Shown here one piece after another: positions 28-38,214 of a stretch of 64,000 nt of DNA. Both the position numbers and the translations under genes were made by a program. The notes beneath the pieces were generated by a model that worked only from the letters and a program-made list of their open reading frames with translations, was not told the DNA's origin and ran no database searches. How positions within the stretch are numbered: the stretch's first letter is position 1; each line of letters opens with the position of its first letter. The stretch comes from Patescibacteria group bacterium (GTDB lineage Bacteria > Patescibacteriota > Patescibacteriia > UBA9934): assembly GCA_041661425.1 (NCBI GenBank), contig JBAZUI010000003.1, positions 10,446-74,445 on the forward strand, in the 5' to 3' direction.

Positions 28-786
28 ATGTCCAAATACTATACCCCTCAACGAAAGACAAAAATGTACACGCCCGGGGCAAAGAAGCCCTTTGCGCTTT
101 CGCGTTCGAAAATTGATTTATTTTTGGAATGTCCTCGTTGTTTTTATCTGGATCGTCGCCTGGGCATTGGGCGTCCAAAAGGATTTCCATTTAATTTAAA
201 CAAAGCCGTTGACGTGCTCTTGAAAAAAGAATTTGATATTCATCGTGCGAAAGGCGAGGCGCATCCACTCATCAAAAAATACGGCGTTGACGCGATTCCC
301 GTCGCGCATGCGGAGCTTGATATTTGGCGTGAGAATTTCAAAGGGGTACGATTTTTGCATGAGGAAACGAATTTTGAATTAACGGGCGCGATCGATGACC
401 TGTGGCAGAACTCGAGTGGCGAATACATCGTGGTTGATTATAAAGCAACGTCCAAGGATCAGAAGATCGAAACACTCGGTGAAGATCGGCAAATTGGGTA
501 TAAGCGACAGATGGAATTTTATCAGTGGCTTTTACGTCGTCGTGGGCTCACGGTTTCCGACACCGGTTATTTTGTGTACTGCAATGGTCGAAAGGATGCA
601 AAAGCGTTTGATGGCAAGCTGGAATTTGATATTGCACTCATTGCCTATCGGGGCGATGATTCATGGGTGGAAAAGACGATCAAAAAAGCGCATACCTGTT
701 TGAATGGGAAAAAGATTCCCGTTGCCAGCAAGGATTGTGATTATTGTCGTTATATTGAGGCGGTGAATGGAAAGACGAATCGGTAG
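28..786 (+). CDS. PD-(D/E)XK nuclease, RecB/Cas4-like, with four-Cys cluster (orphan; no CRISPR nearby)
   Basis: N-terminal LECPRCFYLDRR motif (Cas4-like CPR-x-y-L) with CxxC. D...EYIVVDYK reads as nuclease motifs II/III. C-terminal DCDYCRY CxxC. Confidence 0.5.
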   Translation: MSKYYTPQRKTKMYTPGAKKPFALSRSKIDLFLECPRCFYLDRRLGIGRPKGFPFNLNKAVDVLLKKEFDIHRAKGEAHPLIKKYGVDAIPVAHAELDIWRENFKGVRFLHEETNFELTGAIDDLWQNSSGEYIVVDYKATSKDQKIETLGEDRQIGYKRQMEFYQWLLRRRGLTVSDTGYFVYCNGRKDAKAFDGKLEFDIALIAYRGDDSWVEKTIKKAHTCLNGKKIPVASKDCDYCRYIEAVNGKTNR

Positions 787-826: not shown

Positions 827-905
827 TTGCGAGAATGAATTTTTCGTCCACAGTCGCATAGCGAATCGCTATGCGATTTTGATATAATGATTGTCATAAC
901 GGTTA

Positions 906-2630: not shown

Positions 2631-2631
2631 C

Positions 2632-5600: not shown

Positions 5601-8600
5601 AAGCTGTAGCCCGAGCGCAAGTTCCTGTATGAAAGCAACAGCTTTGGCGGAAGGAACTGCGGCGGTGACGGTTAAGGAATCAGCGTCCGGTGTGAGTGGT
5701 GCTGGGAGTTTTGTCATTGATTTTACCGATCCGGAAGTGACAGCGTATTGGCCAAATTGTACCGAGGCGTGCGTGAACAGTGCCATTGGCGCCCGTTTTA
5801 ATACATCCATGGATAATTCTCTCGAGGACGCGGGAATGGTGACGCTCTCGAAATGTGAAAATGAACTTTGTGCCAATCTTGATGCCGGTGATTTGGTTTC
5901 GGCGGGTGTCGTTTGTGTGGCTGGAGCTGATGGAACGCCCTGTGTGGAAATGGCGCTCTCGCCTCTCACGACACTTGCCGCGAACACCTATTATAAAGTG
6001 ATGATTTCAGGGGAGATTGCGTCTTTGAGCGGGGTGACGCTTACCAAAACAAATGACGGCGAGGACTTCTCGTGGATTTTCGCAACCAAGAATGATGGAA
6101 CGCTTTGCTCGATTGATCGTGCGAGCGTGGAACCAGCAGAGGCACTTCTCAATGCGGTCGGTGAACGTCAATCCTTCTCGGTTTCGGCCTATGGAGAACC
6201 GGATGAATGTTCTGTGGCCGGTCAGGAATTGGTGGCAAGTGATTATGCGTGGGTGTGGGAAAATCCAATCATCAACGATCTTGATGTGGCGGCGTGGAAG
6301 ACGGTTGGCGGAGCGCTCTTTGATGCGGATGCGAGCTCAGTCTCGGGATGCACGAGTTCTTGCATGGCCTCAGGAAGTGATTCTTATGACGCGGTCTGCG
6401 CGAATGGTGCGCTTGAAGTTGGAGAAGAATGCGAGGATGGAAATCTCACGGAAGGGGATGGATGCTCGGCTCATTGTTTGCGTGAAGGAAAAGGCGGGGG
6501 AGGATCGTGTGGGGACGGGACGCTCAATCGCAGTGCAAGCGGTGCCGGGGAAGATTGTGATGACGGCAATACGAAGAGTGGCGATGGATGTTCCTCAACC
6601 TGTCTCAATGAAGGAGCAAATGCCGTTGCAGGAACGTGTGGAAATACAAGTATCGCTTATGCGGAAAATCAGGGAGGAGAGGATTGTGATGACGGAAATA
6701 AAAAGAGCGGTGATGGATGTTCGTCGAATTGTGTCAACGAAGGCTCACGAAGTTATGCGGAACTTTTTGCGGTTTGCGGCGATGGCGCGGTGACGGTTCC
6801 GTATGAATCCTGTGACGATGGAAATGGGCTAAACGAGGATGGATGTTCTTCTTCCTGCGTACGTGAAGGAACAATTGTTGGAATGACGTGTGGCAATGGA
6901 GCCGTTGAGAGACTCTCTTCAAATGCCGGGGAAGATTGTGATGACGGCAATACCGTCGATGGCGATGGCTGTTCCTCGCAGTGTACGTTTGAAGGTTCCT
7001 CCTCTTCTTATGTGACTCCTTCTGTTTGCGGCGATGGGCATGCGGGAATTGGTGAGGATTTCAATTGTGAGTTATTGGCTTCAGGTGATGGCAATATTGA
7101 TCCGATCCAGGATGCAGAAATCATGAACACCGCGGTCGACTTGGTTGATACGGAAACGCAACGTGCAACCGCCACGATTCGTGTGAAGGAACTAACTTCG
7201 AGCGTTGGAAGCGCATCAACTCTTTCGCTTTCCTGCGTGGCAGAAACAGCCGAGGATTGCCCCAGTGCTTCGCTTTATGGCGTTTCAGAAAATGGATGTT
7301 GTCTTCCGCGACCAACCGCGACGCTCATGCCAAACAGCAATGACGTTTGTTTGAACGCGTCGGTCTATGCCATTTTCTCGCAAGAAATGGATTTGGCCTC
7401 ATTTACCGATCGTGTCTATCTTCAACTCGATACCACGGTGATTGGAACCTGTCCAACCTCAAGCGGATACGAAGTTTACACTCCATCCACCACAACCGCT
7501 TCGAGCTTCATTCAAAAAGTTTTTTCTTTTGTTGTCTCGTCCATGTTTGCCCAATCAACCGGACCCTGTATTCTCCCGATTGTCTCTTCTTCGCAGGAAG
7601 CATTGACCGACGGCTCCTACAAAGTGACATTCAGAGTTGAGCATCCTCTCTATCCGGAGACCCAACATATGCTCGTCATTTTTGGGGATCAGACGAGTCG
7701 CGATCTGTCATTGCTTGTTGGTGGGTTGTCATTATCAGGTTCAACCGATTCGACAAGTGAGTGGTTGGGTGTTGTAGATAGTCATGGGATTGGGCTCTAT
7801 CTTACGACCGTTCAAACATTTACCACGACTGATTCCATGTGTCGGCTCGATGAAGTGATTATCACAGACTCTGCTGATGCGCCGGGCATGTTTACCTCTG
7901 CCAATGAATCGCATGATTTTTCAGCCGATGCCTATTCGTATCAAACCGGTTCGCGTCAAGAAATCGCTTCATTGCCCGGTGTTTACGCCTGGAAGTGGGA
8001 TCCTTGGCAGAGTTCGGATTCAACGATCGCTGTTATTGATTCTTCGAGCGAGGATACAGCCGTGATTTCTTCTTTGGAAACAAGCGGATCGTCAACGATT
8101 ATCGCTTCGGCGGCCGTGACCGAAGATGCGGTGGGAACCGATGAAACCGATGCGCTCACACGCTCGGATGATTATCAGGTTGAAGTGAGCATCTGCAATA
8201 TGCCATGGCCGGATTATGCCAACTATCCATTTATCGACGATGCCACCGGGACCGTTGATGGGACAAAGAAAGGCATTGCTTGGATGAATTTCTCTACGCA
8301 TTATTGTCGCGATGCAGGACTCCCCAGCGTGAGCGTGATTGCCCCGCCTGAGACAAAATCAGAAAATGTCATCAAAGAGTATCTTTTGAAAGTCGATGAT
8401 GGATCAGGGGATGCCATTGGTCTTCGTATTGCAAGTAATGAGGATTATCTTCCACCGGAGTTGTGGTATCGCGCTCAAGGATTTGCCGGCAGTCCAAGCA
8501 ATGAAAACGTGGATGGATTTGAAGCGGTTCGTGATGGGCGCACGGTTTATATTTCCGCGCCAAACTATGTTGCGGCGCTCAGTGCAGATAAAAGGAAATC

Positions 8601-11600
8601 GACTGTCAGCGCTCTTTATCCGAATATCTACATTCTTTCTTACAATGAAGGGGCGAGTGATGATACCATTGAAATTTTTAATCAAATCGTTGCCAATCTT
8701 TCGCTCATGACCAATGTTTCTTCCGCGGGTTTCTGTACCATTGTCAATAACAAATGGACCATTGGGGGCGCCTATACCACAACCACCTGTTCCTCGGATT
8801 TTGATTGTGGCGTTGGTGAGACTTGTGGGGATGTGCGTTCAAAAATTCAACGTGATGCCGCGCGCCTTACGGATCTTCGCACAATTGAAAATGCCTTAGC
8901 CGTCTACGGGGCAAGCAACGGCACTTGCTCGGCCACGACTTCACAACGTTGTACCAAATCAAGCGATTGCCCGACCGATGAATCATGTACGCCGTCGTAT
9001 CCGCAACTTGAGAGCGGAACGTACGTTCGGAGCCTTGTTGTGAGTTCATGGTCATCGTGGAATGAAGCGTTTGGAAAAACATTAGGTACCACTCTTCCGC
9101 TCGATCCAATCAATGAAGCTCCGGCTTGCGGAGTGGCGGATTCTTCTTTTGAGTCCTATGAAGCCGATACGTGCGTGAACACGACGACTGGTGCGTATCT
9201 TTGTCCTCTCAATTCCTATGCGTATCACTATCGTTCACTCGGCCCAAATGATTTTGATCTTACGGCTGAACTTGAATATCGTCTGGCGGATTGGGTCTAT
9301 GATATTGATACCTCCACGACGTATGATTTGATCGTTGGCGGGAATACCAGCACAAAAGTGGAAGGGTTTACCGGTGGAACGGCTTATTGCGATTCCTCAA
9401 CGGTCTATGGAAGCTCTTCGAGTTGCGGAGACGGTATTGTTGGCTCTGGAGAGACGTGTGAACTCGGTGAGGTGGGTCCATTGGTGAGCTGCACGGATAG
9501 TGCCGGGTTCTCGGGAACTTCGACACAAGTGTGTAACGCAACCTGCAAGGGGTGGACCTTGCCGACCGGTGCCACGTGTACGGCGTATTCCTGTGGAAAT
9601 GGACTTGTGGAATCGGGAGAAATTTGCGATGACGGTTCGCTCAATGGCACGTATGGTTTTTGCGGGTACGATTGCACGTATGGTTCTGGATTCTCTTGCG
9701 GTGATGGTTCGCTCGCAAGCGGAGAATTCTGTGATTGTGGATCCGCGACATCAAGCGGACGCACATACGGCGGGGGATTGTGTACCACGTACGGCGTTTT
9801 GAATGGGTCGTACCAAACAAATCCGGCGAATTCTTGTTCTTGGGATTGTACGGGCCCGGCGAGTTATTGCGGTGACGGTGCGGTTGACTCTGGTGAGGAA
9901 TGCGATGGGAATGTTGAAACCTATTCCGGACTTCTTTGTCGGCAAGGAATAACAAATATTGGAAGGACACAATCATCGAATGTCGGGAAAACATGTTTAC
10001 AAGATTCTGATTGTGGCACATTGGGTCGGTGTGGTGGAGTGGGGTCAGAACCGGTTTATGATGCTTGCCCAAACACAACGGTGTGTCTTTTGGGAGACGT
10101 AAATCTTCTTGGCTCGGCCTGTACCGTTGATAGCGATTGCGACAGCGTCGAAGGGGATGATGGCGTGTGTTCCGATGACGCGTTCCAAACAACACGAACC
10201 CGTACGTGTGCGGATGATGGCGCGAGCGGTGATGCGTGCACATGGGAAAGTCAATGGATGGATTTGGGGTGCAAGGCAGAAGTTCTTTGTGGAAATGGAG
10301 TGGTCGATAGTGGCGAAGCGTGCGACGATGGCAATGATTCCAATACTGATGACTGCACCGTGCAATGTACAAACAATTATTGCGGCGATGGCTATCTTTA
10401 CGAAAGTGTAGAGGAGTGTGATGAAGGATCATTGAACGGTGTTTCTTGTTCCTCAGCCTATGAAGCCGGGTGTTCCTATTGTTCGGAATCTTGTCTTTCG
10501 GTTGCGGAGAGCGGAACGTTCTGTGGTGATGGTGTCCGAAACGGAGGAGAGTATTGTGATGCCGGCGATATGCCTTACCTTTATGTGAACAACGATGGAT
10601 CGTTTAACGGAACGTGTGAATCAAGTGAGAAGGGCGAGAGCACGAGTGATGGTACGAGCACGTATTATTGTGCAAATGTTGGGGTCTGCGACGGAGGATC
10701 AGAGCAGGGAGATGTCTGCATCGCCTTTAGCACCGTCGCCATAGACTCGCTTTCCGTAGTGCTCTCAGATCTTTCTTCCTGCCCTGGTGGCACCTGTGTT
10801 TATCCATCATGTTCTCCAACGTGTGAGAGCAGCTGTCCGTTTACCAATGAATCAACGTCCATTCTCATGACCACGAATACGGATCGGACTAATCCGGTCG
10901 AGGAGATCTCGCTCGAGACCTACGGCATGCTCTCGGTTGATCGTGATGCGGGAACCATCATTCCAACCGCAGGAACACTTATGATGCCGGCATGCTCGAG
11001 CGCGAACAGTTTGCGCGCCAAGGTTTCATTTGAAGATTTTACTCGTCCACAAAATTATCTTGTTTTCGTTACGGATCTCTCTGCCTCCATGGCAACGACA
11101 TTCGAGAGCGGCGAGACTCGGCTCGAGGTGACAGAAGAGAGTATTCTTACTGCCGGAAAATCCCTCTTTAATGCATTAGGAGAAATGATTCGCGTGAGCA
11201 CGGTTGGGTATCAAGGTGGGAATGTTTATCTTCCCGGCGATGTTATTTCTGGCTATTCCGCGGGTGATGGGTTTATCAGCTCAGAAGCCTACGATGATCT
11301 CGCAACTGTTATTGCCTCTTATAGTCCCGGGGGCGGAACAAATACCTTCGGTGGTCTAGAGGCGGCAAAGAATCTTCTCGATGGAATCTCCGATGAAAAT
11401 ACACGAAAGATGGTCGTGCTCATGACAGATGGAGATTACACGGAAATTTACGGAGATCCCATGTATATGGCGTGTGTTCTTAAGGACGATGGGATTGAGT
11501 TATTTACAGCAACATTAGCGTCGGGGACACAGAGTACACTCAGCTCCGATGGGAATGAATGCGAAAAATATAAGAATAGCGATGGGACGTATATGAGCTA

Positions 11601-12069
11601 TGAGGATTATCTCAGCATTGCGGATACGCGTGTATCGATGTTTGCAACACTCAGCCTTCGCATTCATCATTTTTTCCATAGTTTTATCTCAACAGTTTTG
11701 GCACGAGGTATGGGAACGCTCGGCTGTGATTCATCGGTTATCCCGTTTGTTATCAATAAAATGGCTTGTTATTCGAGCGGAAATCCAAATCCAGATACGG
11801 GAATCGATTATGCCTATAACGGATCCACAAAAGAAGAATTACAGACGATGTATGAAGAGATTCTCCAATCAATTCTCGGAGTTTCTCTCGGGTTTGTGGT
11901 AAACGGATCAATGGTCACCGGAGCCATACAAGAAGGTACGAGCGTTGAGCTTCCGTGGCCAACGGGCTTTGCCTGTACTGGCGAGGAACAAGAACTCCCA
12001 ATTCGTCTCTTTTTTGAAGGGGAAGGCACGGTGGATATTAGTGATGTCTCACTCAATTATTGTGATTGA
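2632..12069 (+). CDS. Giant (~3145 aa) cell-surface protein: VirB2-like pilin module, poly-Gly linker, Ig-like and IPT/TIG repeats, Cys-rich CxxCDDGN repeats, C-terminal vWA domain
   Basis: In-frame ATG at 2632 lies right after the stop of the upstream paralog, giving MQRFF...signal. N-terminal module is ~50% identical to the 906 gene. ITGTGFG/ITGQNFG/ISGSNFG/IYGDGFG are IPT/TIG motifs. More than 15 CGDG..GE.CDDGN..GDGCS..C repeats (Myxococcus-type cysteine-rich repeat). vWA MIDAS DLSASM...TDGDY near the C-terminus. Confidence 0.7.
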   Translation: MQRFFLSLFMAFTLLTGAGVFQVSHVYAQTESLETVGETAGLSAEDPKVIIGRIIRTGLGVLGIIATLIVLYGGWRYMTAGGDADKVDKAKKILINGGIGLVIILASYAITSFVISSLLNASDGGGGGGGGGGDGGGGLGGGNVATFTVTSIRPSGEVSIRNIKVTATLSRTLSATLPADAILIANESGDLVEGTIVAEGNSLTFTPIEFCPTPNDDLFCFEENTTYTVTISSDLESSTGTSITCGTNCSGTFTSGSLVDTEDPFVSITYPDDGARIPYSLGASMIQAEATDDSEISTISFYENDSLYDVVPASGLDLSDVLLSMNWEWSSSLAENATVALKAIATDLAGNTDSDRISVRLNPAHCYNDVLDADSGETSVDCGGDCGTCDGDACTANLDCASGVCIEGFCVVPPVITSFTPTDAGFGSFVTITGTGFGRSGTVSFTGADGSLLTAQIASCSDGWSSEELVVVVPEGVSDGPLTLVVGGLTEKTDDENGPLLADFTIDSEPTVSLCRLSPSSGYAGSTLTITGQNFGTQIDTSSVLFDGVTPATIKSWKADSIQVTVPSLAGKSYAVTVVNANLSNALSFDLKAASSWESTEAMPVMSAITPTSGGKNQYLTISGSNFGSSIGVVWFENPTSGYTAMGSADFPEACSTTFWSDDEITIMVPESYINDESIAISEHTVFVARQDGKESNSIDFTITTANPTPGICGIVPEEGAPGTSVVIYGDGFGAGEGDIRFYNEARANFSSWNDSEIVTATPAAAKSGPVTVIDENSVKSNGANFLITGSSDLDPVIPFIPKYSWIFSTGNIPLAPEPIFACSETQISGVPNKDFSSNICLNASLYVEFTMPMSTITTDGFVVEACETSTCKNTTVVEGMINQVSSTSVYFYPDELLPSTTYRVTLTTDSQSTDGVPLGNDVSWTFTTGTSGTQCLVEKMYVSPETITVNAIGSTGQFNGVPATADCVPLDSPSYLYTWTINESYASKGSCSPSASSCMKATALAEGTAAVTVKESASGVSGAGSFVIDFTDPEVTAYWPNCTEACVNSAIGARFNTSMDNSLEDAGMVTLSKCENELCANLDAGDLVSAGVVCVAGADGTPCVEMALSPLTTLAANTYYKVMISGEIASLSGVTLTKTNDGEDFSWIFATKNDGTLCSIDRASVEPAEALLNAVGERQSFSVSAYGEPDECSVAGQELVASDYAWVWENPIINDLDVAAWKTVGGALFDADASSVSGCTSSCMASGSDSYDAVCANGALEVGEECEDGNLTEGDGCSAHCLREGKGGGGSCGDGTLNRSASGAGEDCDDGNTKSGDGCSSTCLNEGANAVAGTCGNTSIAYAENQGGEDCDDGNKKSGDGCSSNCVNEGSRSYAELFAVCGDGAVTVPYESCDDGNGLNEDGCSSSCVREGTIVGMTCGNGAVERLSSNAGEDCDDGNTVDGDGCSSQCTFEGSSSSYVTPSVCGDGHAGIGEDFNCELLASGDGNIDPIQDAEIMNTAVDLVDTETQRATATIRVKELTSSVGSASTLSLSCVAETAEDCPSASLYGVSENGCCLPRPTATLMPNSNDVCLNASVYAIFSQEMDLASFTDRVYLQLDTTVIGTCPTSSGYEVYTPSTTTASSFIQKVFSFVVSSMFAQSTGPCILPIVSSSQEALTDGSYKVTFRVEHPLYPETQHMLVIFGDQTSRDLSLLVGGLSLSGSTDSTSEWLGVVDSHGIGLYLTTVQTFTTTDSMCRLDEVIITDSADAPGMFTSANESHDFSADAYSYQTGSRQEIASLPGVYAWKWDPWQSSDSTIAVIDSSSEDTAVISSLETSGSSTIIASAAVTEDAVGTDETDALTRSDDYQVEVSICNMPWPDYANYPFIDDATGTVDGTKKGIAWMNFSTHYCRDAGLPSVSVIAPPETKSENVIKEYLLKVDDGSGDAIGLRIASNEDYLPPELWYRAQGFAGSPSNENVDGFEAVRDGRTVYISAPNYVAALSADKRKSTVSALYPNIYILSYNEGASDDTIEIFNQIVANLSLMTNVSSAGFCTIVNNKWTIGGAYTTTTCSSDFDCGVGETCGDVRSKIQRDAARLTDLRTIENALAVYGASNGTCSATTSQRCTKSSDCPTDESCTPSYPQLESGTYVRSLVVSSWSSWNEAFGKTLGTTLPLDPINEAPACGVADSSFESYEADTCVNTTTGAYLCPLNSYAYHYRSLGPNDFDLTAELEYRLADWVYDIDTSTTYDLIVGGNTSTKVEGFTGGTAYCDSSTVYGSSSSCGDGIVGSGETCELGEVGPLVSCTDSAGFSGTSTQVCNATCKGWTLPTGATCTAYSCGNGLVESGEICDDGSLNGTYGFCGYDCTYGSGFSCGDGSLASGEFCDCGSATSSGRTYGGGLCTTYGVLNGSYQTNPANSCSWDCTGPASYCGDGAVDSGEECDGNVETYSGLLCRQGITNIGRTQSSNVGKTCLQDSDCGTLGRCGGVGSEPVYDACPNTTVCLLGDVNLLGSACTVDSDCDSVEGDDGVCSDDAFQTTRTRTCADDGASGDACTWESQWMDLGCKAEVLCGNGVVDSGEACDDGNDSNTDDCTVQCTNNYCGDGYLYESVEECDEGSLNGVSCSSAYEAGCSYCSESCLSVAESGTFCGDGVRNGGEYCDAGDMPYLYVNNDGSFNGTCESSEKGESTSDGTSTYYCANVGVCDGGSEQGDVCIAFSTVAIDSLSVVLSDLSSCPGGTCVYPSCSPTCESSCPFTNESTSILMTTNTDRTNPVEEISLETYGMLSVDRDAGTIIPTAGTLMMPACSSANSLRAKVSFEDFTRPQNYLVFVTDLSASMATTFESGETRLEVTEESILTAGKSLFNALGEMIRVSTVGYQGGNVYLPGDVISGYSAGDGFISSEAYDDLATVIASYSPGGGTNTFGGLEAAKNLLDGISDENTRKMVVLMTDGDYTEIYGDPMYMACVLKDDGIELFTATLASGTQSTLSSDGNECEKYKNSDGTYMSYEDYLSIADTRVSMFATLSLRIHHFFHSFISTVLARGMGTLGCDSSVIPFVINKMACYSSGNPNPDTGIDYAYNGSTKEELQTMYEEILQSILGVSLGFVVNGSMVTGAIQEGTSVELPWPTGFACTGEEQELPIRLFFEGEGTVDISDVSLNYCD

Positions 12070-12070
12070 T

Positions 12071-12799
12071 ATGGATTGGCAAGCGCAACAATTTTATTCG
12101 CTCACTCCAGAGGGGACCCCGGTTCTCCCCGAGCAAGAATCTCCAAAAAAATCAGGAAAGAAAATTTTGATTTTGACTGGAGTTTTTTTGGGGGTTGTTG
12201 TTCTTGGGCTTGGCATTTGGGGAGTCATTGGTCTTTTTTCCGGTGAAGAAGTTGCCACGGAAGAAGCGGAGGTCTGTACGTTGGGTGAAGCAGGATGTTC
12301 AACGATCGCGGCTTTAGAAACAAGTGACATTGATTCTTGTGCCTCGCTTTCCGGAGATGAAAAAATTAATTGTGAAGACTTGGCGTATCTCTCGAAATCA
12401 CAGGATGAGGATGATGAATCGTGGTGCAAAAAAATCAAAAGCGAAATTCTAGCGACTTCTTGCGAGGATAATTTTGCCGCACAGGAGTCACTTCTCCGCA
12501 TTGAAGATGCGTCGCTCACGGGCAACCCGCTTGATTGTGAGGCGCTTGAGAATACGGACGATCAAGTGAATTGCCTTGACGTGATCGCTTCCATTGACGA
12601 AGATGAAGATGGCCTCACACGACAGGATGAATATGCGGCAGGAACGCTCGATACGGATTGGGATGCGGATAACGATGGATTGAACGATGGGGAAGAAGTG
12701 AGTATCCATGGGACTGATCCCCGGGAGATCGATACCGACGGTGATGGGTTCTCGGATTTTGTGGAGGTCCAGTCTGGTTATGACCCACTTGTCCCTTAA
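12071..12799 (+). CDS. Single-pass membrane protein with acidic ectodomain and thrombospondin-type-3-like Ca-binding repeats
   Basis: ATG at 12071 two nt after the giant gene stop. TM helix ILILTGVFLGVVVLGLGIWGVIGLF. DTDWDADNDGLNDGEE and DTDGDGFSDFVE are DxDxDG motifs. Confidence 0.55.
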   Translation: MDWQAQQFYSLTPEGTPVLPEQESPKKSGKKILILTGVFLGVVVLGLGIWGVIGLFSGEEVATEEAEVCTLGEAGCSTIAALETSDIDSCASLSGDEKINCEDLAYLSKSQDEDDESWCKKIKSEILATSCEDNFAAQESLLRIEDASLTGNPLDCEALENTDDQVNCLDVIASIDEDEDGLTRQDEYAAGTLDTDWDADNDGLNDGEEVSIHGTDPREIDTDGDGFSDFVEVQSGYDPLVP

Positions 12800-13482
12800 T
12801 GAGCTATAATAGAATTACTATGTTTGACAATCAACCAACCCCAAGCCCTGTTTCAGCCCCTCCGATTCCACAAAAACCCGTGGAAGATATTTTTAGCGCT
12901 TCCGAACCCATGCAGGCCACTGTGCCCGCACCTCAACCAGTTGTTAATCCTCTGGCGCAAAAAACAGCAATGCCGAATCCTCAAATTCCTTCCTCGGCGC
13001 CTCGAGTATCGCTCCCTCCGGTCCCAAAAAAAGGAGGAACAGGAAAAATTATTTTAGTTATTATTGGCATGATTCTCATTCTTGCCATTGCCGGTGGACT
13101 CGCCGTCTTTTTGATGTCAGGCTCATCTCTCGGCCTCTCTGATATTTTGTCAGGGACAGATGAATCGACCGATGAAACTACCCAGGATGGAAAGGGTGAT
13201 CTTATCCTCGATGAGGACGAGCCTGTGGTCGAAGAGGTGGCAGAAGAGCCGGTTGATAGCGATGGTGATGGATTGATGGACAGCGAAGAAATCAATGCCG
13301 GCACCGATCCATATAGCACAGATTCTGATCGTGATGGCTTGGGTGATCGTGAAGAGGTAAAAGTTTATGGAACCGATCCGCTTGATCCTGATAGTGATGG
13401 CGATACGTATCTTGATGGGAAAGAAGTTGAATCAGGATACAACCCCAATGGTGCGGGAAAGCTTTATGAAATCCCTGAGTAA
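12799..13482 (+). CDS. Paralogous single-pass membrane protein with TSP3-like DxDxDG repeats
   Basis: Pro-rich cytoplasmic N-terminus, TM IILVIIGMILILAIAGGLAVFLM, DSDGDGLMDSEE / DSDRDGLGDREE / DSDGDTYLDGKE. Confidence 0.55.
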   Translation: MSYNRITMFDNQPTPSPVSAPPIPQKPVEDIFSASEPMQATVPAPQPVVNPLAQKTAMPNPQIPSSAPRVSLPPVPKKGGTGKIILVIIGMILILAIAGGLAVFLMSGSSLGLSDILSGTDESTDETTQDGKGDLILDEDEPVVEEVAEEPVDSDGDGLMDSEEINAGTDPYSTDSDRDGLGDREEVKVYGTDPLDPDSDGDTYLDGKEVESGYNPNGAGKLYEIPE

Positions 13483-13484
13483 TT

Positions 13485-14435
13485 ATGGGGGATGATCGTC
13501 AAACGATTGAGGCTCCAACGCAGACGTCTCCCAAGGACGATGAGTTTGTGATTCACGTCATGCCAAAGGAATTCTTGGGAAAACCTGCGGCCGTTGTGCA
13601 ACCCATTGTTGCGCAAGCTCCTGTCAAAAAAGCGCTTCCTCCTTCGCCGGTCGTTGCTCCGTCAACCGCTCCGATGGCTCTACTTCCAAAGGGGACAGTG
13701 CCCATGCCGGCAAAAAAGCGTCACCTTCCTTGGGCGCTCATTGTTCTTCTTTTTGGGCTTCTTGTCGTTGTTGGAGGAGGAATTGTTTATTATTATTTTT
13801 TCCTTGTGACACCGGAGCCGGAGGTCGTCCCCGAGGAGGAAACACCGATTGTTGAAGAACCGGTCGCGATTCAGCCGGGGCACGATACGGATTCCGATGG
13901 GCTTACCGATACGGAGGAACTTCTTTATGGCACGGATTATCGTAATCCCGATACGGATGGCGATACATTCTTGGATGGGAATGAAGTTTTCCACCGGTAT
14001 GATCCGTTGGGATTCGCTCCATCAACCTTGCTCGACACGGGCTCGGTTCTCGAATTCACAACGTATGAATTGCCGCTTGGGGGTTTTCGAATTTATTATC
14101 CGGCTTCTTGGTCCATCGTAAACTCAAGCCAGACCACAATCACCTTTCACACGGAAAAAACAGAAGTGGTGACTTTGGAGCGGTTTCCAAAAACTGAGGA
14201 TTCATTCGGCTCCTGGTACGCGAATCGACCTGTTGAAGCGGCGCCCTTCTCGAGTCTTATGGCTTTTACCACAAAAGAAGGATTGGACGGGTATATGCAA
14301 GGCGATGAACGCTTGGCCTATATCGATCTTTCCGACGCGGTGTGGAAATTCTCTTATGATCTTGGCGATGAGGTGACCATTGATTATCTCCAGACGTTTC
14401 AGATGATGATTAATAGTTTTATTCTCGTCAAATGA
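13485..14435 (+). CDS. Paralogous single-pass membrane protein with TSP3-like repeats and C-terminal globular domain
   Basis: TM LIVLLFGLLVVVGGGIVYYYFFL, DTDSDGLTDTEE, DTDGDTFLDGNE. Confidence 0.55.
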   Translation: MGDDRQTIEAPTQTSPKDDEFVIHVMPKEFLGKPAAVVQPIVAQAPVKKALPPSPVVAPSTAPMALLPKGTVPMPAKKRHLPWALIVLLFGLLVVVGGGIVYYYFFLVTPEPEVVPEEETPIVEEPVAIQPGHDTDSDGLTDTEELLYGTDYRNPDTDGDTFLDGNEVFHRYDPLGFAPSTLLDTGSVLEFTTYELPLGGFRIYYPASWSIVNSSQTTITFHTEKTEVVTLERFPKTEDSFGSWYANRPVEAAPFSSLMAFTTKEGLDGYMQGDERLAYIDLSDAVWKFSYDLGDEVTIDYLQTFQMMINSFILVK

Positions 14436-14866
14436 TAAAACTTATTCTTCAGCAGACCCTTCTTCCGGTTGGTGAACAGTTTTCAAAAGATGATCTTTTA
14501 TTTATCGCAAAAACCATTGGGAGTCTTGTTGCTCAAAAAAAAGAGGGGGAAATTGCGATCGCCATGATCGATGATCAAGAAATTCAGCGATTGAATCGGA
14601 TGTATCGTGGAATCGATAAGGAAACCGATGTGCTTTCCTTCGGGTATGCGGACGCTTCTCATGCGAAGAATTCGCTTGGTGACGTTGTGATTTCTTATCC
14701 CCAGGCCGTGCGACAAGCGATCGGAAATACGCGCGGCGAGCTCCTCCGTTTGATGATTCACGGGATTCTTCATGTGCTTGGCTTTGATCACGAACGTCCG
14801 GAAGACGCTCGTCAAATGTTTCCTCTTGAAGATCAATTATTTTCTCAATTATCCTCTCTTGTATGA
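14432..14866 (+). CDS. ybeY: rRNA maturation endoribonuclease YbeY
   Basis: HGILHVLGFDHE H-x3-H-x5-H metal site, ~144 aa. Confidence 0.85.
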   Translation: MIKLILQQTLLPVGEQFSKDDLLFIAKTIGSLVAQKKEGEIAIAMIDDQEIQRLNRMYRGIDKETDVLSFGYADASHAKNSLGDVVISYPQAVRQAIGNTRGELLRLMIHGILHVLGFDHERPEDARQMFPLEDQLFSQLSSLV

Positions 14867-15243
14867 GTCAAATTTTCCAACGATTTTCTCGAAGTTTTCG
14901 TCACGCCTTTCATGGGATTGGCCTGATTTTGCGTCGAGAGCGAAGTTTTCAGGTACAGGTTTTCGCCGCGATCGTTGTTCTTACACTCGTTATTGCGCTC
15001 CCGCTCGATACATGGGAACGCGTTTTGCTCATTCTTTTGACCGCAGCCGTTCTGGTGCTCGAAATCCTCAATAGTATCTTCGAGCGAATTTCCGATGCGC
15101 TTCGCCCCCGTCTTGACCCGGTTGTGAAGGATGTGAAAGATATGATGGCTGGTGCTGTTCTTCTCACCTCTATGACGGCGGCCGTGATTGCGGTTCTTAT
15201 TCTTTGGGATTATTTCGTCAATTTTGTCGCCTCACGCTTTTAG
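14863..15243 (+). CDS. dgkA: Diacylglycerol/undecaprenol kinase family
   Basis: 126 aa, three TM, EILNSIFE motif (DgkA E-x-NSAIE). Confidence 0.75.
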   Translation: MSQIFQRFSRSFRHAFHGIGLILRRERSFQVQVFAAIVVLTLVIALPLDTWERVLLILLTAAVLVLEILNSIFERISDALRPRLDPVVKDVKDMMAGAVLLTSMTAAVIAVLILWDYFVNFVASRF

Positions 15244-15249
15244 GGTATA

Positions 15250-16509
15250 ATGGATGCTATCGTTATGGCGGAACGTACGATTACAGGGTTAGATATCGGC
15301 TCTTCGCGTATTCGCGTTGTGGTTTCGCAAGCATTACCCGGAGAAGATTCAAAACCTTGCCTTCATGTCCTTGGCGCTGTGGAAGTTCCATCTATTGGAA
15401 TTCATCGTGGAAGCATCTCGAGTATCGAGGATGCTGTTTCTTCTATTTCAAAGGCTCTTGAAAAATCAGAACGCATGACCGGGAAGCCGGTGAATCACGC
15501 CTGGGTTTCGATTGCCGGTCAACAAATGCTTGTGCAGGAGAGTCGGGGAGTGATTGGCGTTTCCCGTCCATCCGGGGAGATCCAGGAGGAAGATGTTGAA
15601 CGCGTTATCGAGGCGGCTCGTACCGTGGCAACCCCATCGAATTACGAGATTTTGCACGTCATTCCCAAGAGTTTTACCGTGGATGGCCAGCGGGGTATTA
15701 AAGATCCGGTTGGCATGCATGGCATTCGGTTGGAAGTGGACGCGGTCATTATCCAGACGATTTCATCTCACATAAAAAATGTTACCAAGAGTGTTTATCG
15801 TACCGGGCTTGATATTGATGATTTGGTTTTTTCGCCTCTAGCCACGGCCGAAGCAGTGCTCACCCCGCGACAGAAGGAATTGGGTGTTTGCGTTGCCGAT
15901 ATTGGGGCGACGAGTACCACATTAGTGGTCTACGAGGAAGGAGATATGCTCCATACCGCGGTTTTACCAATCGGGGGTGATCACATTACCCATGATTTGG
16001 CGATTGTTCTTCGAACATCTATTGAGATTGCGGAGCAAGTGAAGAGAGGAATTGGATGTGCGGTTCCTGATCAGGCATTGAAGGAACCATGCAATCTTCG
16101 GGATTTCGGTTCTGGCGAGGATGAAGTTCTGAAACCTCGACTTGTTTCCGAGATCATTGAAGCACGAGCAGAAGAAATTTTTGAGGCAATTGATGATGAA
16201 CTTCGAAAAATCGATCGTTCCGGCATGCTTCCGGTTGGGGTAGTTTTGACGGGTGGGGCCGTGAAACTTCCAGGGATGGCCGATGTGGCAAAACGCGTTT
16301 TGCGTCTCCCGGTTTCCATCGGTTTTCCCTCGGGTGTCAGCAGTGCGATCGACGAAGTGCGCGATCCGGCTTATGCGACGGCCGTCGGATTGGCAATGTG
16401 GGGTTTTGCCATTGAATCAACCTCACATGGAAAGTTTAAATTCGCCATAAAAGGCATCCAGGATATTTCTGATACGGTTCGGAAATGGCTAAAAACATTG
16501 ATCCCATAA
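15250..16509 (+). CDS. ftsA: Cell division protein FtsA
   Basis: GLDIGSSRIRVVV actin-like phosphate-1 motif, ~419 aa, directly upstream of ftsZ. Confidence 0.85.
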   Translation: MDAIVMAERTITGLDIGSSRIRVVVSQALPGEDSKPCLHVLGAVEVPSIGIHRGSISSIEDAVSSISKALEKSERMTGKPVNHAWVSIAGQQMLVQESRGVIGVSRPSGEIQEEDVERVIEAARTVATPSNYEILHVIPKSFTVDGQRGIKDPVGMHGIRLEVDAVIIQTISSHIKNVTKSVYRTGLDIDDLVFSPLATAEAVLTPRQKELGVCVADIGATSTTLVVYEEGDMLHTAVLPIGGDHITHDLAIVLRTSIEIAEQVKRGIGCAVPDQALKEPCNLRDFGSGEDEVLKPRLVSEIIEARAEEIFEAIDDELRKIDRSGMLPVGVVLTGGAVKLPGMADVAKRVLRLPVSIGFPSGVSSAIDEVRDPAYATAVGLAMWGFAIESTSHGKFKFAIKGIQDISDTVRKWLKTLIP

Positions 16510-16554
16510 TTTGACGAATAAAGTGAGTCAAAGTGTGGCTCATTTTTTTGTTGT

Positions 16555-16620
16555 CTGGGGGTCAGGTCGTTACTTGTAGCGTTATTTTTAAGAAGTGCGA
16601 CAAGTAACGACCTGACCCTC
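16555..16620. terminator. Perfect ~20-bp stem hairpin between ftsA and ftsZ
   Basis: GGGGTCAGGTCGTTACTTGT ... ACAAGTAACGACCTGACCC. Could be a terminator/attenuator or processing site. Confidence 0.5.
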
Positions 16621-16806
16621 CAGCGCTCGGGTGAAGGTTGCGATGATAATTGTCCGAAAAGTTATACCGAGGTTATGCACAAGACCGTATATCGATTCAG
16701 AACCAAGTATGATAACTTTATGAGTACAAATTTTATCGAAGCTTAGCCAAGTTGGATAAATTTAGTGTTCAACTGAATAAGCATCTGAATCAATCATGTC
16801 GTCAAT

Positions 16807-18066
16807 ATGGCAGAAGTGAAACCAGAAATCGAGGCCTTTGCGAAAATTAAGGTTTTCGGCGTTGGCGGAGGCGGGGGATCTGCCATTAATCGAATGATTA
16901 AGGAAAAAATGAAGGGCGTTGATTTTGTTGCCGTGAACACAGATGTTCAGGCGTTACAGGCAAATTTAGCTCAGCATAAAATTCCAATTGGAAAGACCGT
17001 GACGCGTGGGTTGGGGGCTGGTATGAATCCGGATATGGGACGTCGCGCGGCCGAGGAAGGAGCGAATGATATCCGAAGTGCGATCAGTGGATCGGATATG
17101 GTCTTTTTGACCGGTGGACTCGGCGGTGGCACGGGGTCTGGTGCTCTTCCGGAGATTGCAAAAATCGCTCGGGAATCTGGTGCGCTCACCGTGGCGGTTG
17201 TCACAAAGCCATTCTCATTTGAAGGGGCGCAACGCAAGCGTATCGGTGATGATGCTTATGCAGAACTTTCTCAACAGGTCGATACGATCATCACGATTCC
17301 AAACGATCGTGTGCTTCAGATCATCGATAAAAAAACAACCTTGCTTGAAGCCTTCCAAATCGTCGACGACGTCTTGCGCCAGGGCGTTCAAGGAATTTCG
17401 GAAATCATTACGCTCCCGGCTCTCATTAACGTCGACTTCGCCGATGTAAAAACCATCATGCAAAATGCCGGGTCGGCGCTTATGGGCATCGGAACAGCGT
17501 CCGGAGAAAATCGTGCGGTCGAGGCGGCAAAAATGGCAATCGCGAGTCCGCTTCTTGAGGTCTCCATCGATGGAGCAAAAGGGATCCTTTTTACGATTAC
17601 TGGAAGTCCGGATCTTGCCATGTACGAGGTGGCGGAAGCGGCAAAAGTGATTACCGGTTCAGCGGACGACGACGCAAAGGTCATCTTTGGCGCAAACATC
17701 GATGAGTCGCTAAAAGATGAGGTGCGTATCACCGTGGTTGCAACCGGTTTTGATGCGCGTGATCGTCGCATGGCTCCTGGTCTTGGTGGGGATGTTGAAA
17801 TCGCTCCGCGTGGTACCTGGACGCCAAGCGCTCGGCCAGATAATTATCGGAATCAGCCAATGGCGTCTCAACCACGAGAATCAATCGTACGTGAATCACC
17901 GTTTAAGGAACATCGCGTTCCATCGTTCGATGAAGAGCCAGTGCGTCAGGAACGTGAGCCGATCCTTCGCGATGAGCCATTCGCGCCTCCAGCCCCTCAA
18001 CAAAAGCAAGAGACGCCGGATGCGGACTTTGATATCCCTCCATTCATCCGCCGGAAGAGAATGTAG
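16807..18066 (+). CDS. ftsZ: Cell division GTPase FtsZ
   Basis: GVGGGGGSAINRM and GGLGGGTGSG tubulin signature. C-terminal DIPPFIRRKR peptide. Confidence 0.95.
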   Translation: MAEVKPEIEAFAKIKVFGVGGGGGSAINRMIKEKMKGVDFVAVNTDVQALQANLAQHKIPIGKTVTRGLGAGMNPDMGRRAAEEGANDIRSAISGSDMVFLTGGLGGGTGSGALPEIAKIARESGALTVAVVTKPFSFEGAQRKRIGDDAYAELSQQVDTIITIPNDRVLQIIDKKTTLLEAFQIVDDVLRQGVQGISEIITLPALINVDFADVKTIMQNAGSALMGIGTASGENRAVEAAKMAIASPLLEVSIDGAKGILFTITGSPDLAMYEVAEAAKVITGSADDDAKVIFGANIDESLKDEVRITVVATGFDARDRRMAPGLGGDVEIAPRGTWTPSARPDNYRNQPMASQPRESIVRESPFKEHRVPSFDEEPVRQEREPILRDEPFAPPAPQQKQETPDADFDIPPFIRRKRM

Positions 18067-31628: not shown

Positions 31629-32083
31629 ATTGGATCGCCACACGGGTTCATCTCCCCGGCTTTTCGATGCTCGAAATGCTTCTTGTGGTGGCAACCATTG
31701 GGATTCTTGCCACCATTTCTATCCCGATCTATCGCTCAATCCTCACGGGGAATGAAATGCAAGTCGCGCGTGAAATTCTTGTGCGTGGCCTTCGTGTTGC
31801 AGAGCTTCGCACCCAATCAGGAGCTGAGGATGCATCTTGGGGAGTATTTGCACAAAGCGGTTCCGTGACGATTTTTTCCGGAGCGAACTATGTTGAGCGC
31901 GATCCAACCCTTGATGATATTTATGTCGTCTCCCAAGAACTCAATTTTTCCGGAGATACGGAAGTGACGTTCACCGCCCCGTTCGGTCAGCTTCTCACGG
32001 AAAAAACACTCATCCTCTCTCAAACTGGACATGACTCCATTTCAATTACCATTAATCTTGAAGGAGCAATCGCCTATGAATAG
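31625..32083 (+). CDS. Pseudopilin (GspH/FimT-like) with prepilin cleavage motif
   Basis: ATGA overlap with pilC. PGFSMLEMLLVVATIGILA matches G|F..LE at +5. Confidence 0.7.
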   Translation: MNWIATRVHLPGFSMLEMLLVVATIGILATISIPIYRSILTGNEMQVAREILVRGLRVAELRTQSGAEDASWGVFAQSGSVTIFSGANYVERDPTLDDIYVVSQELNFSGDTEVTFTAPFGQLLTEKTLILSQTGHDSISITINLEGAIAYE

Positions 32084-38086: not shown

Positions 38087-38163
38087 GGGTCGGTAGTTCA
38101 ATTGGTTAGAGCACCGCCCTGTCACGGCGGAAGTTGCGGGTTCGAGCCCCGTCCGACCCGCCA
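38087..38163 (+). tRNA. tRNA-Asp (GTC)
   Basis: GGGTCGG acceptor stem, anticodon loop CTGTCAC, TTCGAGC T-loop, encoded CCA. Confidence 0.9.
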
Positions 38164-38197: not shown

Positions 38198-38214
38198 CGA
38201 AGAACCACCCCTTA

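Follow-up and report, generated by a model that had tools for sequence, protein, structure and literature searches.

The gene block and its coding layout

Downstream of a gene for a giant surface protein, three tightly packed open reading frames on the + strand, here called P1, P2 and P3, occupy positions 12071-14435 of the window, meaning the whole 64-kb stretch of DNA that was analysed (Table 1). The downstream context, YbeY-DgkA-FtsA-FtsZ, spans 14432..18066 on the same strand. Three consecutive membrane-protein genes following a giant adhesin were what the original prediction had described, and the reading frames are indeed present and closely spaced. The stop codon of the giant gene is at 12067-12069, and the list of open reading frames places the ATG of P1 at 12071; the NCBI annotation starts P1 at ATG 12044 instead. 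The P1 stop (TAA, 12797-12799) has one base in common with ATG 12799, where the mechanical frame of P2 begins, and the family consensus together with the NCBI call sets the P2 start at ATG 12820 ('MFDN...'). The P2 stop (13480-13482) is followed by the P3 ATG at 13485, and the stop of P3 and the start of YbeY share 4 nt (ATGA, 14432-14435). The proposed start/stop coupling to the giant gene therefore holds, but the equally tight coupling to ybeY-dgkA-ftsA-ftsZ had not been weighed. Scans for promoters and terminators across the block gave counts equal to those of shuffled sequence, and the giant gene is presumably co-transcribed with the P1-P2-P3 genes.

Table 1. Features of the gene block, in positions of the 64-kb window
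Feature	Position	Strand	Details
574-aa protein, N-terminal VirB2-like two-helix anchor and Big_5 Ig-like domains	906..2630	+	
Giant surface protein	2530..12069	+	3179-aa ORF; Pfam, NCBIfam, sequence
P1, family A	12071..12799	+	242 aa; 251 aa from NCBI start 12044
P1 transmembrane core, residues 32-52	12164..12226	+	mean Kyte-Doolittle 2.51; KKSGKK just before; AF2 helix 30-57
P1 Cys-pair helical-repeat (possibly TPR-like) domain	12275..12595	+	eight Cys invariant across family
P1 TSP3 module, loops DEDEDGLTRQDE, DADNDGLNDGEE, DTDGDGFSDFVE	12596..12796	+	
P2, family B	12820..13482	+	220 aa from ATG 12820; mechanical ORF from 12799
P2 cytosolic N-terminal motifs	12820..12891	+	MFD at start; P..EDIF at residues 19-24
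P2 transmembrane core	13048..13110	+	mean Kyte-Doolittle 3.05; PKKGGTGK before
P2 TSP3 module DSDGDGLMDSEE, DSDRDGLGDREE, DSDGDTYLDGKE, then GYNPNGAGKL	13255..13464	+	TSP3_bac 49.9 bits
P3, family C	13485..14435	+	316 aa
P3 cytosolic motif VIHVMPKEF, residues 22-30	13548..13574	+	
P3 transmembrane helix	13725..13808	+	Kyte-Doolittle 2.54; PAKKRH before; AF2 helix 83-108
P3 TSP3 module (DTDSDGLTDTEE ... DTDGDTFLDGNE ... YDPLG)	13884..14012	+	17.2 bits Pfam
P3 C-terminal PsbP/Mog1/LpqN-like alpha/beta domain	14022..14432	+	
YbeY	14432-14866	+	Pfam
DgkA	14863-15243	+	Pfam
FtsA	15250-16509	+	Pfam
FtsZ	16807-18066	+	Pfam

The giant protein, whose real start is probably an internal Met near nt 2632, ahead of the signal peptide, is composed of a VirB2-like anchor, Ig-like domains of the TIG, Big_5 and Big_7 types, Cys-rich acidic repeats and a C-terminal VWA domain. 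T4SS_pilin (PF18895) is matched with 31.6 bits (cut-off 26.6), and the other Pfam matches are TIG, Big_5, DUF4215 and VWA. The anchor of the 574-aa protein is paralogous to that of the giant, with similar N-terminal sequences; its Big_5 domains score 68.3 bits and its T4SS_pilin match 21.4 bits, below the same cut-off, while the NCBIfam pilin-like model NF045849 gives 33-34 bits on both proteins, below its cut-off of 40. In the loci L084, L088, L123 and L127 the 574-aa gene also precedes the giant. No VirB4 or VirB6 gene was seen near the block among the window ORFs scanned. Both proteins thus carry the PF18895-type domain of the Patescibacteria VirB2-like pilins, which one preprint describes as widespread in CPR and often found in arrays; the passages on the subject consulted there name neither TSP3 membrane proteins nor giant fusions as neighbours of VirB2-like genes (bioRxiv 10.1101/2025.01.22.634366). 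Since a VirB2-like anchor at its own N-terminus already ties the giant to the membrane, there is no obvious need for the 'anchoring set' that P1-P3 had been proposed to form.

Membrane topology and the TSP3 module

Each of the three proteins has one strongly hydrophobic segment (mean Kyte-Doolittle 2.5-3.1) with 4 K/R within the 15 residues preceding it, and a very acidic C-terminal part (38-53 D+E against 6-11 K+R). By the positive-inside rule this charge distribution fits an N-in/C-out topology, and P1, P2 and P3 are, as judged from their sequences, type-II single-pass membrane proteins, whose ectodomains would be exposed at the cell surface. The hydropathy values bear out the single transmembrane helix expected of each protein, and the charge counts show that the ectodomain is acidic. 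The expected short cytoplasmic N-terminus applies to P1 (about 31 residues) but not to P2 (76) or P3 (80), and the supposedly uniform layout of helix, linker and repeats, correct as regards helix and repeats, overlooked the extra C-terminal domain of about 135 residues in P3.

The module itself consists of two or three DxDxDG loops with a short helix after each one, and is placed just outside the membrane. Pfam TSP3_bac (PF18884) is matched well above its gathering cut-off of 25 by P1 (46.2 bits) as well as by P2, so that the TSP3 assignment passed the Pfam check set for it, and the loop counts (3, 3 and 2) agree with the two or three repeats foreseen. The P3 score is under that cut-off, and the P3 module is 58-59% identical to those of P1 and P2 (BLASTP E 5e-10 and 6e-13). 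In the six-frame translation of the window the strict motif D.D.DG..D..E occurs five times, always within the P1-P3 genes. The Asp and Gly positions of the loops show no variation in family C and are conserved in the other two families as well; to judge from the DxDxDG motif, the modules would be expected to bind Ca2+.

The likeness among P1, P2 and P3 is restricted to this 44-62-residue module (52-59% identity), so they are not simple paralogs. Moreover, module identity across genomes within a family (0.57, 0.70 and 0.78, the last in family C) equals or exceeds that between families, which in turn does not differ between modules taken from a single genome and modules taken from different ones. 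Recent paralogy and gene conversion could consequently be ruled out: these are three different families of ancient divergence, A, B and C, each under purifying selection, with a common TSP3 module. The term 'paralogous' therefore suits the Ca-binding module, whose copies show no concerted evolution, and not the remainder of the proteins.

Neither the eight TSP3 loops nor their flanks contain Cys; the P2 and P3 ectodomains have none at all, and the eight Cys of P1 all lie upstream of its module. Pfam searches at E<=1 found neither PF00691 (OmpA_C) nor PF13505 in the three proteins, so the repeats are not 'OmpA-like' in the sense of a peptidoglycan-binding protein, as had been suggested. Dockerin gave no Pfam match in P1-P3, and EF-hand_6 only E 0.16 (12.3 bits against a cut-off of 25). 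OmpA-like peptidoglycan binders, dockerins and classical EF-hands were thereby ruled out.

The three families

P1, of family A, combines a short cytosolic tail, a transmembrane helix, an eight-Cys helical domain, whose cysteines are presumably paired as disulfides, and three DxDxDG loops. The AF2 model of P1, which is of very high confidence (pLDDT 85.9), shows a helical solenoid and the TSP3 module, the latter resembling the Ca-binding region of Bap.

In P2, of family B, a Pro-rich cytosolic tail leads into the transmembrane helix; outside the membrane come an acidic linker, the three TSP3 loops and, last, GYNPNGAGKL. Beyond the module, essentially only the GYNPNGxGKL tail and the cytosolic MFD...EDIF peptide are conserved. 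The peptide is kept in 57 family-B sequences as well as in distant members of other lineages, and in the fetched loci it is almost confined to TSP3 proteins (53 against 2). A PDB sequence search with the P2 module gave weak matches, to lanmodulin and an EF-hand protein (E 0.017) and to Bap (E 0.12). The name 'Gram positive anchor' carried by one family-B member was dismissed, as that protein has no LPXTG motif.

P3, of family C, consists of the cytosolic tail and the transmembrane helix, then a linker rich in Pro and Glu, the two TSP3 loops and a C-terminal domain whose predicted fold is structurally similar to PsbP/Mog1/LpqN domains. No sequence-level match of this domain to the PsbP, Mog1, LpqN or DcrB-type families was found in Pfam, and no described case was found of such a domain fused with a TSP3 module, a membrane anchor and a conserved cytosolic motif. 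The VIHVMPKEF motif recurs in 30 diverse members (P27 invariant, M26 and F30 at least 90% conserved) and in the distant members L082_345 and L088_348. The TSP3 module is the most conserved stretch of the family, with a run of invariant columns from D134 to P174.

Gene neighbourhood in related genomes

Among the related loci, 61 had 3 kb or more of sequence upstream, and 56 of these show the order giant-A-B-C. The co-conservation with a giant bearing a T4SS_pilin domain that had been proposed is thus confirmed, and the link persists where the downstream genes differ. Most loci belong to one broad CPR clade, Uhrbacteria and relatives, within which a shared gene order could simply reflect common descent, with no link in function. 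Nevertheless, four independent arrangements keep TSP3 genes beside VirB2-like genes. In Falkowbacteria-type loci, the B and C genes remain with giant proteins, ybeY and dgkA are absent, and clpP, secDF, a Wzy_C gene and a prepilin peptidase gene separate the B and C genes from ftsA-ftsZ. In L084 unrelated genes come after a giant and a B-like gene; in L087 and L135 small VirB2-like pilins, without VWA and with no giant, adjoin a B-like TSP3 gene; and in L113 a TSP3 gene lies beside an array of five pilins. In the metagenome sample, where 28 loci had both flanks readable, a giant or pilin gene lay upstream in 19: 14 of these also had ybeY downstream, 5 did not, and the other 9 loci had neither neighbour. 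A search through 589 kb of flanking sequence on the downstream side found no VirB2-like gene.

The other side of the block raises the alternative that P1-P3 are proteins of cell division or envelope growth, whose cytosolic peptides would engage FtsA, FtsZ or some other component of the divisome and whose Ca-loaded ectodomains would touch the wall, the adjacency to the giant being a historical accident. In 78-80 of 81 loci the genes after the P3 homolog are those for YbeY, DgkA and FtsA, the order through FtsZ is as here in nearly all related loci, the 4-nt P3/YbeY overlap is found here and in most of them, and the B-like genes of L087 and L135 directly precede ybeY-dgkA-ftsA-ftsZ with no giant nearby. 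In addition, the strongly conserved cytosolic motifs of families B and C need a cytosolic partner. Nevertheless, the B and C genes of the Falkowbacteria-type loci stay with giants away from the division genes, the B-like gene of L084 follows a giant and precedes unrelated genes, and none of the 28 metagenome loci has ybeY downstream without a giant or VirB2-like gene upstream. The notion that EDIF mimics the C-terminal peptide of FtsZ was not supported either, as the FtsZ of this genome ends DFDIPPFIRR. A division role is therefore considered unlikely. We know of no tie of YbeY (rRNA maturation) or of DgkA to surface proteins, which also counts against it.

The breadth of the module family points to another alternative, in which TSP3 is a general Ca2+-dependent spacer or wall-association module and P1-P3 are generic wall or surface-layer tethers acting independently of the giant, for instance by binding wall polymers or buffering surface Ca2+. 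A profile search matched 25,095 cluster representatives at E<=1e-3; among the distant matches of a search with P1, the same module is fused to OmpA_C (PF00691), YkuD (PF03734), sortase (PF04203) and LTD domains, and L126 and L141-type CPR-like loci hold TSP3 membrane proteins in unrelated contexts. Occurring in thousands of unrelated envelope proteins, the module alone implies no specific partner, and its position close to the membrane anchor would suit a tether. On the other hand, each module has its own strongly conserved family-specific surface, reaching 78% identity across genomes in family C against about 40% for the whole protein, which speaks for specific partners and against a generic spacer. 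Furthermore, the association with VirB2-like proteins recurs in independent arrangements, and Pfam found none of the wall-binding domains OmpA_C, LysM, SLH or SH3 in P1-P3. This explanation is judged improbable, to about the same degree as a role in division.

Comparison with known systems

Bacterial TSP3 proteins (PF18884), such as those of the OmpA family, share with P1-P3 the tandem DxDxDG loops, the acidic, extracytoplasmic character and the expected Ca2+ binding. P1-P3 differ from the OmpA family in being monoderm-type, N-terminally anchored single-pass proteins with no beta-barrel or OmpA_C, in their conserved cytosolic motifs and family-specific extra domains, and in repeats that lack cysteine, unlike the disulfide-bonded repeats of eukaryotic and OmpA-type TSP3. 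Dai and co-workers reportedly concluded in 2017 that the TSP3 structure of OmpA depends on an intra-repeat disulfide. Thrombospondin and COMP type-3 repeats are tandem DxDxDG Ca-binding loops and extracellular partners of VWA/integrin-type adhesion proteins; they contain about 13 loops against 2-3 here, and P1-P3 have neither the repeat disulfides nor the C-terminal lectin-like domain, so that kinship with eukaryotic TSP3 is at the level of the motif or repeat only. Staphylococcus Bap, whose region B is a Ca-binding EF-hand-like tandem, is matched weakly; it is a giant protein attached to the wall through LPXTG, and P1-P3 show no evident amyloid-prone region.

A functional parallel is offered by Myxococcus xanthus CglD, in which a DxDxDG domain of the COMP/TSP3-like type is joined to Cys-rich repeats and a VWA domain, and which acts together with CglB, a VWA adhesin, in the Ca2+-dependent adhesion of an integrin-like gliding system (bioRxiv 10.1101/2023.10.19.562135). 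CglD (NF033765) is the top NCBIfam match of P1, P2 and P3, with 24, 31.9 and 21.7 bits; against a cut-off of 400, such scores mean that P1-P3 are not CglD orthologs. CglD unites the TSP3-like region, an EGF-like stalk and the VWA in a single lipoprotein; the match covers the repeat region only, and P1-P3 have neither VWA nor lipobox. TSP3-like, Cys-rich and VWA modules are common to CglD and to this block, here on separate polypeptides and in a monoderm-like CPR bacterium without Glt machinery. Moreover, CglD is anchored by lipid, while P1-P3 and the giant are anchored by a transmembrane helix and a VirB2-like hairpin, respectively, and conservation of the VWA does not extend to distant relatives of the block.

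That set of modules suggests docking of the integrin/COMP type, in which the Ca2+-loaded TSP3 modules would bind the MIDAS of the giant's C-terminal VWA, tying its far end to the membrane or gating its exposure. The giant's VWA carries a DLSAS MIDAS motif, and in 60 related loci the VWA region lies at the extreme C-terminus of the giant ortholog, DxSxS being kept in 30 of them where the position aligned. Distant giants with B/C-type TSP3 genes downstream end instead in fn3, Big, He_PIG or Fib_succ_major domains, with no VWA detected in their last 600 residues, and the small VirB2-like proteins adjoining TSP3 genes also lack it. Docking is therefore unlikely to be general; it was downgraded as a general mechanism, and overall we regard it as very unlikely.

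Proposed role

What stands of the original prediction is the TSP3 match of the repeats and the co-conservation with the giant; full paralogy and the OmpA-like label do not, and a need for anchoring is not obvious. The P1-P3 genes lie in a conserved block between the giant and the cell-division genes, which suggests that they probably encode accessory parts of a surface structure. More specifically, P1-P3 may be Ca2+-loaded, membrane-proximal accessory subunits of one or more VirB2-like-anchored surface proteins, a tentative reading, held with slightly less than even confidence, which draws on the gene neighbourhood and on analogy with Myxococcus CglD/CglB and COMP-integrin. The giant would be held in the membrane by its VirB2-like ('T4SS_pilin') hairpin and translated from one coupled gene string with P1-P3. 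The TSP3 modules would fold around Ca2+, stiffening P1-P3 near the membrane, and the three proteins would co-assemble with the VirB2-like-anchored protein or proteins, organising or bracing the base of the structure at the cell surface, which implies a presumed physical contact with the giant. Their conserved cytosolic peptides could link the structure to a partner inside the cell, and each family would contribute its own extra part: A the possibly TPR-like eight-Cys domain, B the GYNPNGxGKL tail and the MFD...EDIF peptide, and C a PsbP/Mog1-like binding domain together with VIHVMPKEF.

Attachment to other cells is the presumed way of life of Patescibacteria (CPR). To our knowledge, no molecules of the contact surface have been described for most CPR lineages, nor have partners been assigned to their many VirB2-like 'pilin' and giant surface proteins. 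A bolder extension is that families A-C, the giant and its 574-aa paralog form an undescribed CPR-specific, Ca2+-dependent host-attachment apparatus, with the TSP3 proteins as its transmembrane base and their cytosolic peptides signalling to, or positioned by, FtsA/FtsZ, so coupling attachment to division in these episymbionts; this we consider more doubtful than either the division or the tether alternative. No description of the block was found in the literature on TSP3 in Patescibacteria/CPR, on PF18884 or on PF18895.

Three conserved families currently annotated as hypothetical have thus been defined, with the architectures TM + Cys-TPR-like + TSP3, TM + TSP3, and TM + TSP3 + PsbP-like. 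They travel with VirB2-like-anchored proteins in hundreds of genomes, in a block running into ftsA-ftsZ, and provide a concrete, testable set of candidates for a calcium-dependent CPR surface complex, which would bring an adhesion theme of the integrin/COMP type, known in Myxococcus, into an ultra-small, monoderm-like bacterium. Should the surface-complex reading be wrong, they would be abundant Ca-binding envelope proteins, still useful for annotation. Family C has at least 609 close relatives, and a profile search retrieved 1138 cluster representatives at E<=1e-30, some of which are large multi-repeat proteins.

Membrane topology and the TSP3 module

P1, P2 and P3, encoded by three genes directly downstream of the giant VirB2-like-anchored surface protein and all "hypothetical" in the public annotation, each have one strongly hydrophobic segment with a Lys/Arg cluster just ahead and a very acidic C-terminal part (38-53 Asp+Glu versus 6-11 Lys+Arg), pointing to an N-in/C-out topology. 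Their TSP3 (bacterial thrombospondin type-3) module is membrane-proximal. In the Pfam search that had been proposed for these repeats, TSP3_bac scored well over the cut-off of 25 bits in P1 (46.2) and P2 (49.9) and under it in P3 (17.2 bits), whose module aligns with those of P1 and P2 at 58-59% identity. The strict pattern D.D.DG..D..E has five matches in the six frames of the 64-kb window, all within the P1-P3 genes. The original prediction of three single-pass membrane proteins with TSP3 repeats was thus borne out, except that the cytoplasmic N-termini, described as short, comprise 76 residues in P2 and 80 in P3. Moreover, since BLASTP finds no match outside the module of 44-62 residues, the term "paralogous" applies to the module and not to the rest of the proteins. 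Going by what is established for DxDxDG motifs and for thrombospondin/COMP type-3 repeats, the module would be expected to fold around Ca2+. It belongs to a known Pfam family and, in contrast to eukaryotic repeats, has no Cys; the TSP3 repeat of OmpA is reportedly disulfide-dependent, also unlike those of P1-P3.

Families A, B and C

Within each family, module identity across genomes (0.57 in A, to which P1 belongs, 0.70 in B, that of P2, and 0.78 in C, that of P3) equals or exceeds the identity between families, which does not depend on whether the two genes come from one genome or from different ones. Therefore, the three modules split long ago and each has been kept by selection.

A search with P3 gave at least 609 relatives of family C, around 40% identical over their full length, and a profile search 1138 cluster representatives at E<=1e-30, including a minority of giant multi-repeat proteins. 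The family C alignment comprises the conserved cytosolic motif VIHVMPKEF, a Pro-rich tail, the TM helix, a Pro/Glu linker and a nearly invariant module (DTDSDGLTDxEExLYGTDxRNPDTDGDTFLDGNEVFHRYDPLGxAPSTLLDTG), C-terminal to which lies a domain of around 135 residues that is a PsbP-like binding domain. Family B consists of hardly more than tail, TM helix, linker and module, and its signatures, an N-terminal MFD...(E/D)DIF and a GYNPNGxGKL end, are both also present in distant lineages. The eight invariant cysteines of family A are arranged in repeated C-x(6-12)-C units. The structure model of P1, a prediction of the single chain without ions, is very confident (mean pLDDT 85.9). It is helical throughout; its TPR-type matches are weak, and its TSP3 part resembles the Ca-binding B region of Staphylococcus Bap. 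At one locus of a distant lineage (L088, 9173-11182), a family-A member has the Cys-pair repeats without the TSP3 module, and a family-B member carries an extra C-terminal domain, PsbP-like in appearance, which points to an origin of B and C by duplication, with differential domain loss.

Organization of the gene string

On the + strand of the window, a gene string runs without a break from a nuclease gene through the giant, P1-P3 and ftsA-ftsZ to the pyruvate kinase gene. The giant's stop (12067-12069) is followed by the P1 ATG at 12071, an ATG at 12799 shares one base with the P1 stop, the P2 stop and the P3 ATG lie two bases apart, and P3 and YbeY share an ATGA in which the stop of the one overlaps the start of the other; the P1-P3 junctions are of the translational-coupling type. 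The P2 start is most likely 12820 (MFDN...), on which family consensus and public annotation agree, rather than the ORF's first ATG at 12799. As regards P1, the public annotation places the start at 12044 (251 aa, overlapping the giant's end), and the family consensus "MD" fits 12071. The giant ORF and the gene upstream overlap by 100 nt and have a closely similar VirB2-like N-terminal anchor in common; the true start of the giant is probably an internal Met near nt 2632, ahead of the signal-peptide-like MQRFFLSLFMAF.... A promoter-like site just upstream of ftsA and a hairpin just downstream of it may subdivide the long string, in a scan whose overall promoter and terminator counts were no higher than in shuffled sequence.

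Features of the window
Feature	Position (nt)	Strand	Remarks
PD-(D/E)XK nuclease	28-786	+	
574-aa protein	906-2630	+	VirB2-like N-terminus, Big_5 domains
Giant, 3179-aa ORF	2530-12069	+	T4SS_pilin, TIG, Big_5, Big_7, DUF4215/Cys-rich acidic repeats, C-terminal VWA
P1	12071-12799	+	family A
P2	12820-13482	+	family B
P3	13485-14435	+	family C
YbeY, DgkA, FtsA, FtsZ, NrdR, pyruvate kinase	after P1-P3	+	
Promoter-like site	15224-15251		
Hairpin, 11 bp, with T-run	16520-16546		
Second very large ORF, 1832 aa	21065-26563		DUF6923/beta-propeller-like repeats, Peptidase_M14 carboxypeptidase domain, fn3
PilB (T2SSE)	28258-29940		type IV pilus
PilC (T2SSF with SH3_3 tail)	29937-31628		type IV pilus
1123-aa ORF after PilB/PilC	32031-35402		no Pfam match
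tRNA-Asp	38087-38163		
First GC-rich island	38200-41800		GC 0.57-0.79
First-island ORF	38430-40082	-	no Pfam match
First-island ORF	40256-41782	-	no Pfam match
tmRNA gene	43647-44039	-	Rfam, 80.4 bits
Second GC-rich island	49000-52200		GC 0.55-0.73
Second-island ORF	49416-50396	+	no Pfam match
Second-island ORF	50644-51846	-	no Pfam match

Conservation of the neighbourhood

Scanning a single genome from each species yielded P3 relatives in 379 stretches; of the 80 loci retrieved, most are labelled Uhrbacteria or Patescibacteria and one Magasanikbacteria. Genes were called as longest ORFs, and BLASTP against the window sequences served to identify VirB2-like and giant homologs, an approach that misses divergent ones; the 10-kb upstream flanks usually cut off the giant's N-terminus. 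The order giant-A-B-C-YbeY-DgkA-FtsA-FtsZ was kept in 56 of the 61 loci whose upstream sequence extends for 3 kb or more, most loci coming from one broad clade, so that such counts are without phylogenetic independence. The 4-nt P3/YbeY overlap is also kept in most loci of that order. The TSP3 genes are therefore co-conserved with the giant, and the contrary case, in which they would not be, fails.

The giant and the ybeY-ftsAZ neighbourhoods could be separated using distant members and 80 metagenome loci retrieved with the family-B alignment. Falkowbacteria-type loci keep giant(s)-B-C and lack ybeY and dgkA, with clpP, secDF, a Wzy_C gene and a prepilin peptidase gene lying before ftsA-ftsZ. 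Two loci (L084/L085) have a VirB2-like+Big_5 gene, an inserted restriction-modification pair, a 2020-aa giant, a B-like gene and then unrelated genes; the insert (888-3816) is of type I (N6_Mtase, Methylase_S), the remaining block being kept. Two others (L087/L135), without a giant, show a 135-aa VirB2-like gene, rpsU, a B-like gene and then ybeY-dgkA-ftsA-ftsZ, and in L113 a tandem array of five small VirB2-like genes adjoins three TSP3 membrane proteins. Both flanks could be read in 28 metagenome loci, of which 14 had a giant/VirB2-like gene upstream and ybeY downstream, five the giant/VirB2-like gene only, none ybeY only, and nine neither, these nine being other TSP3 families. Since the downstream flanks hold no VirB2-like gene across 589 kb, the adjacency is more than a simple density effect. 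Taken with the arrangements, these counts make a VirB2-like-domain protein the most constant neighbour and the ybeY-ftsAZ link the second.

A role of P1-P3 in the divisome or in envelope growth, tied to ftsA/ftsZ, is supported by the P3 overlap with ybeY, by the cytosolic motifs and by loci of the L087 type, but is considered unlikely, given the arrangements in which the TSP3 genes stay with the giant and away from ybeY. That they are generic wall or surface tethers is considered equally unlikely: in favour is the wide distribution of the module, which is also found fused to OmpA_C, YkuD and sortase, and against it are the family-specific conservation and the recurrence of VirB2-like neighbours.

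Another recurrent TSP3 context, near position 10000 of six loci (L141, L142, L143, L157, L165 and L168), comprises a TSP3 membrane protein of ~320-390 aa followed by 1-TM (~340-700 aa) and 7-10-TM (~690-880 aa) proteins. A further locus (L148) has three adjacent ORFs of 1458-1787 aa, each with 22-34 TSP3-type loops, and such multi-repeat proteins are also among the best profile matches.

Proposed role and known systems

The reading tentatively preferred, with somewhat less than even confidence, casts A, B and C as Ca2+-stiffened transmembrane accessory subunits of VirB2-like-anchored surface protein(s), with which they would assemble near the membrane while connecting to a cytosolic partner. 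The established parts are the topology and membrane-proximal module position, a module surface conserved in a family-specific way, the helical domain with its eight invariant cysteines in A, the PsbP-like binding domain in C, the conserved cytosolic peptides of B and C, the junctions of translational-coupling type, and the conserved neighbourhood. Judged from sequence, A, B and C together with the giant represent a specific candidate for a CPR surface complex dependent on Ca2+.

Myxococcus CglD, the best NCBIfam match of P1, P2 and P3 although far under threshold, offers a precedent. It unites a DxDxDG region of COMP/TSP3-like type with Cys-rich repeats and a VWA/MIDAS domain, and together with CglB, a VWA adhesin, it takes part in adhesion that depends on Ca2+ (bioRxiv 10.1101/2023.10.19.562135). 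CglD carries these module types on one protein, whereas the CPR block distributes the same types over separate polypeptides. As a special case of the accessory-subunit model, specific TSP3-VWA docking could be envisaged, and the giant carries Cys-rich acidic repeats and a C-terminal VWA with DLSAS that is conserved in close orthologs. Nevertheless, in distant giants with B/C genes downstream the C-terminus is formed by fn3, Big, He_PIG or Fib_succ_major domains, and VWA is entirely missing from small VirB2-like proteins; a TSP3-MIDAS contact therefore cannot be the general mechanism, and such docking is considered very improbable.

In the literature on TSP3 in CPR, PF18884 and PF18895, no description was found of families A, B and C, of the TM + TSP3 + PsbP-like architecture, of the conserved cytosolic motifs, or of the conserved block with VirB2-like giants ahead of ybeY-dgkA-ftsA-ftsZ. 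TSP3 neighbours go unmentioned in the available part of a recent survey of patescibacterial VirB2-like pilins (bioRxiv 10.1101/2025.01.22.634366).

GC-rich islands

Two islands of the window are GC-rich in a genome of ~0.48 GC, the first beginning directly after tRNA-Asp and containing two long minus-strand ORFs for Ala/Pro-rich single-TM proteins. These islands might represent foreign or integrated DNA or else result from a chimeric assembly.
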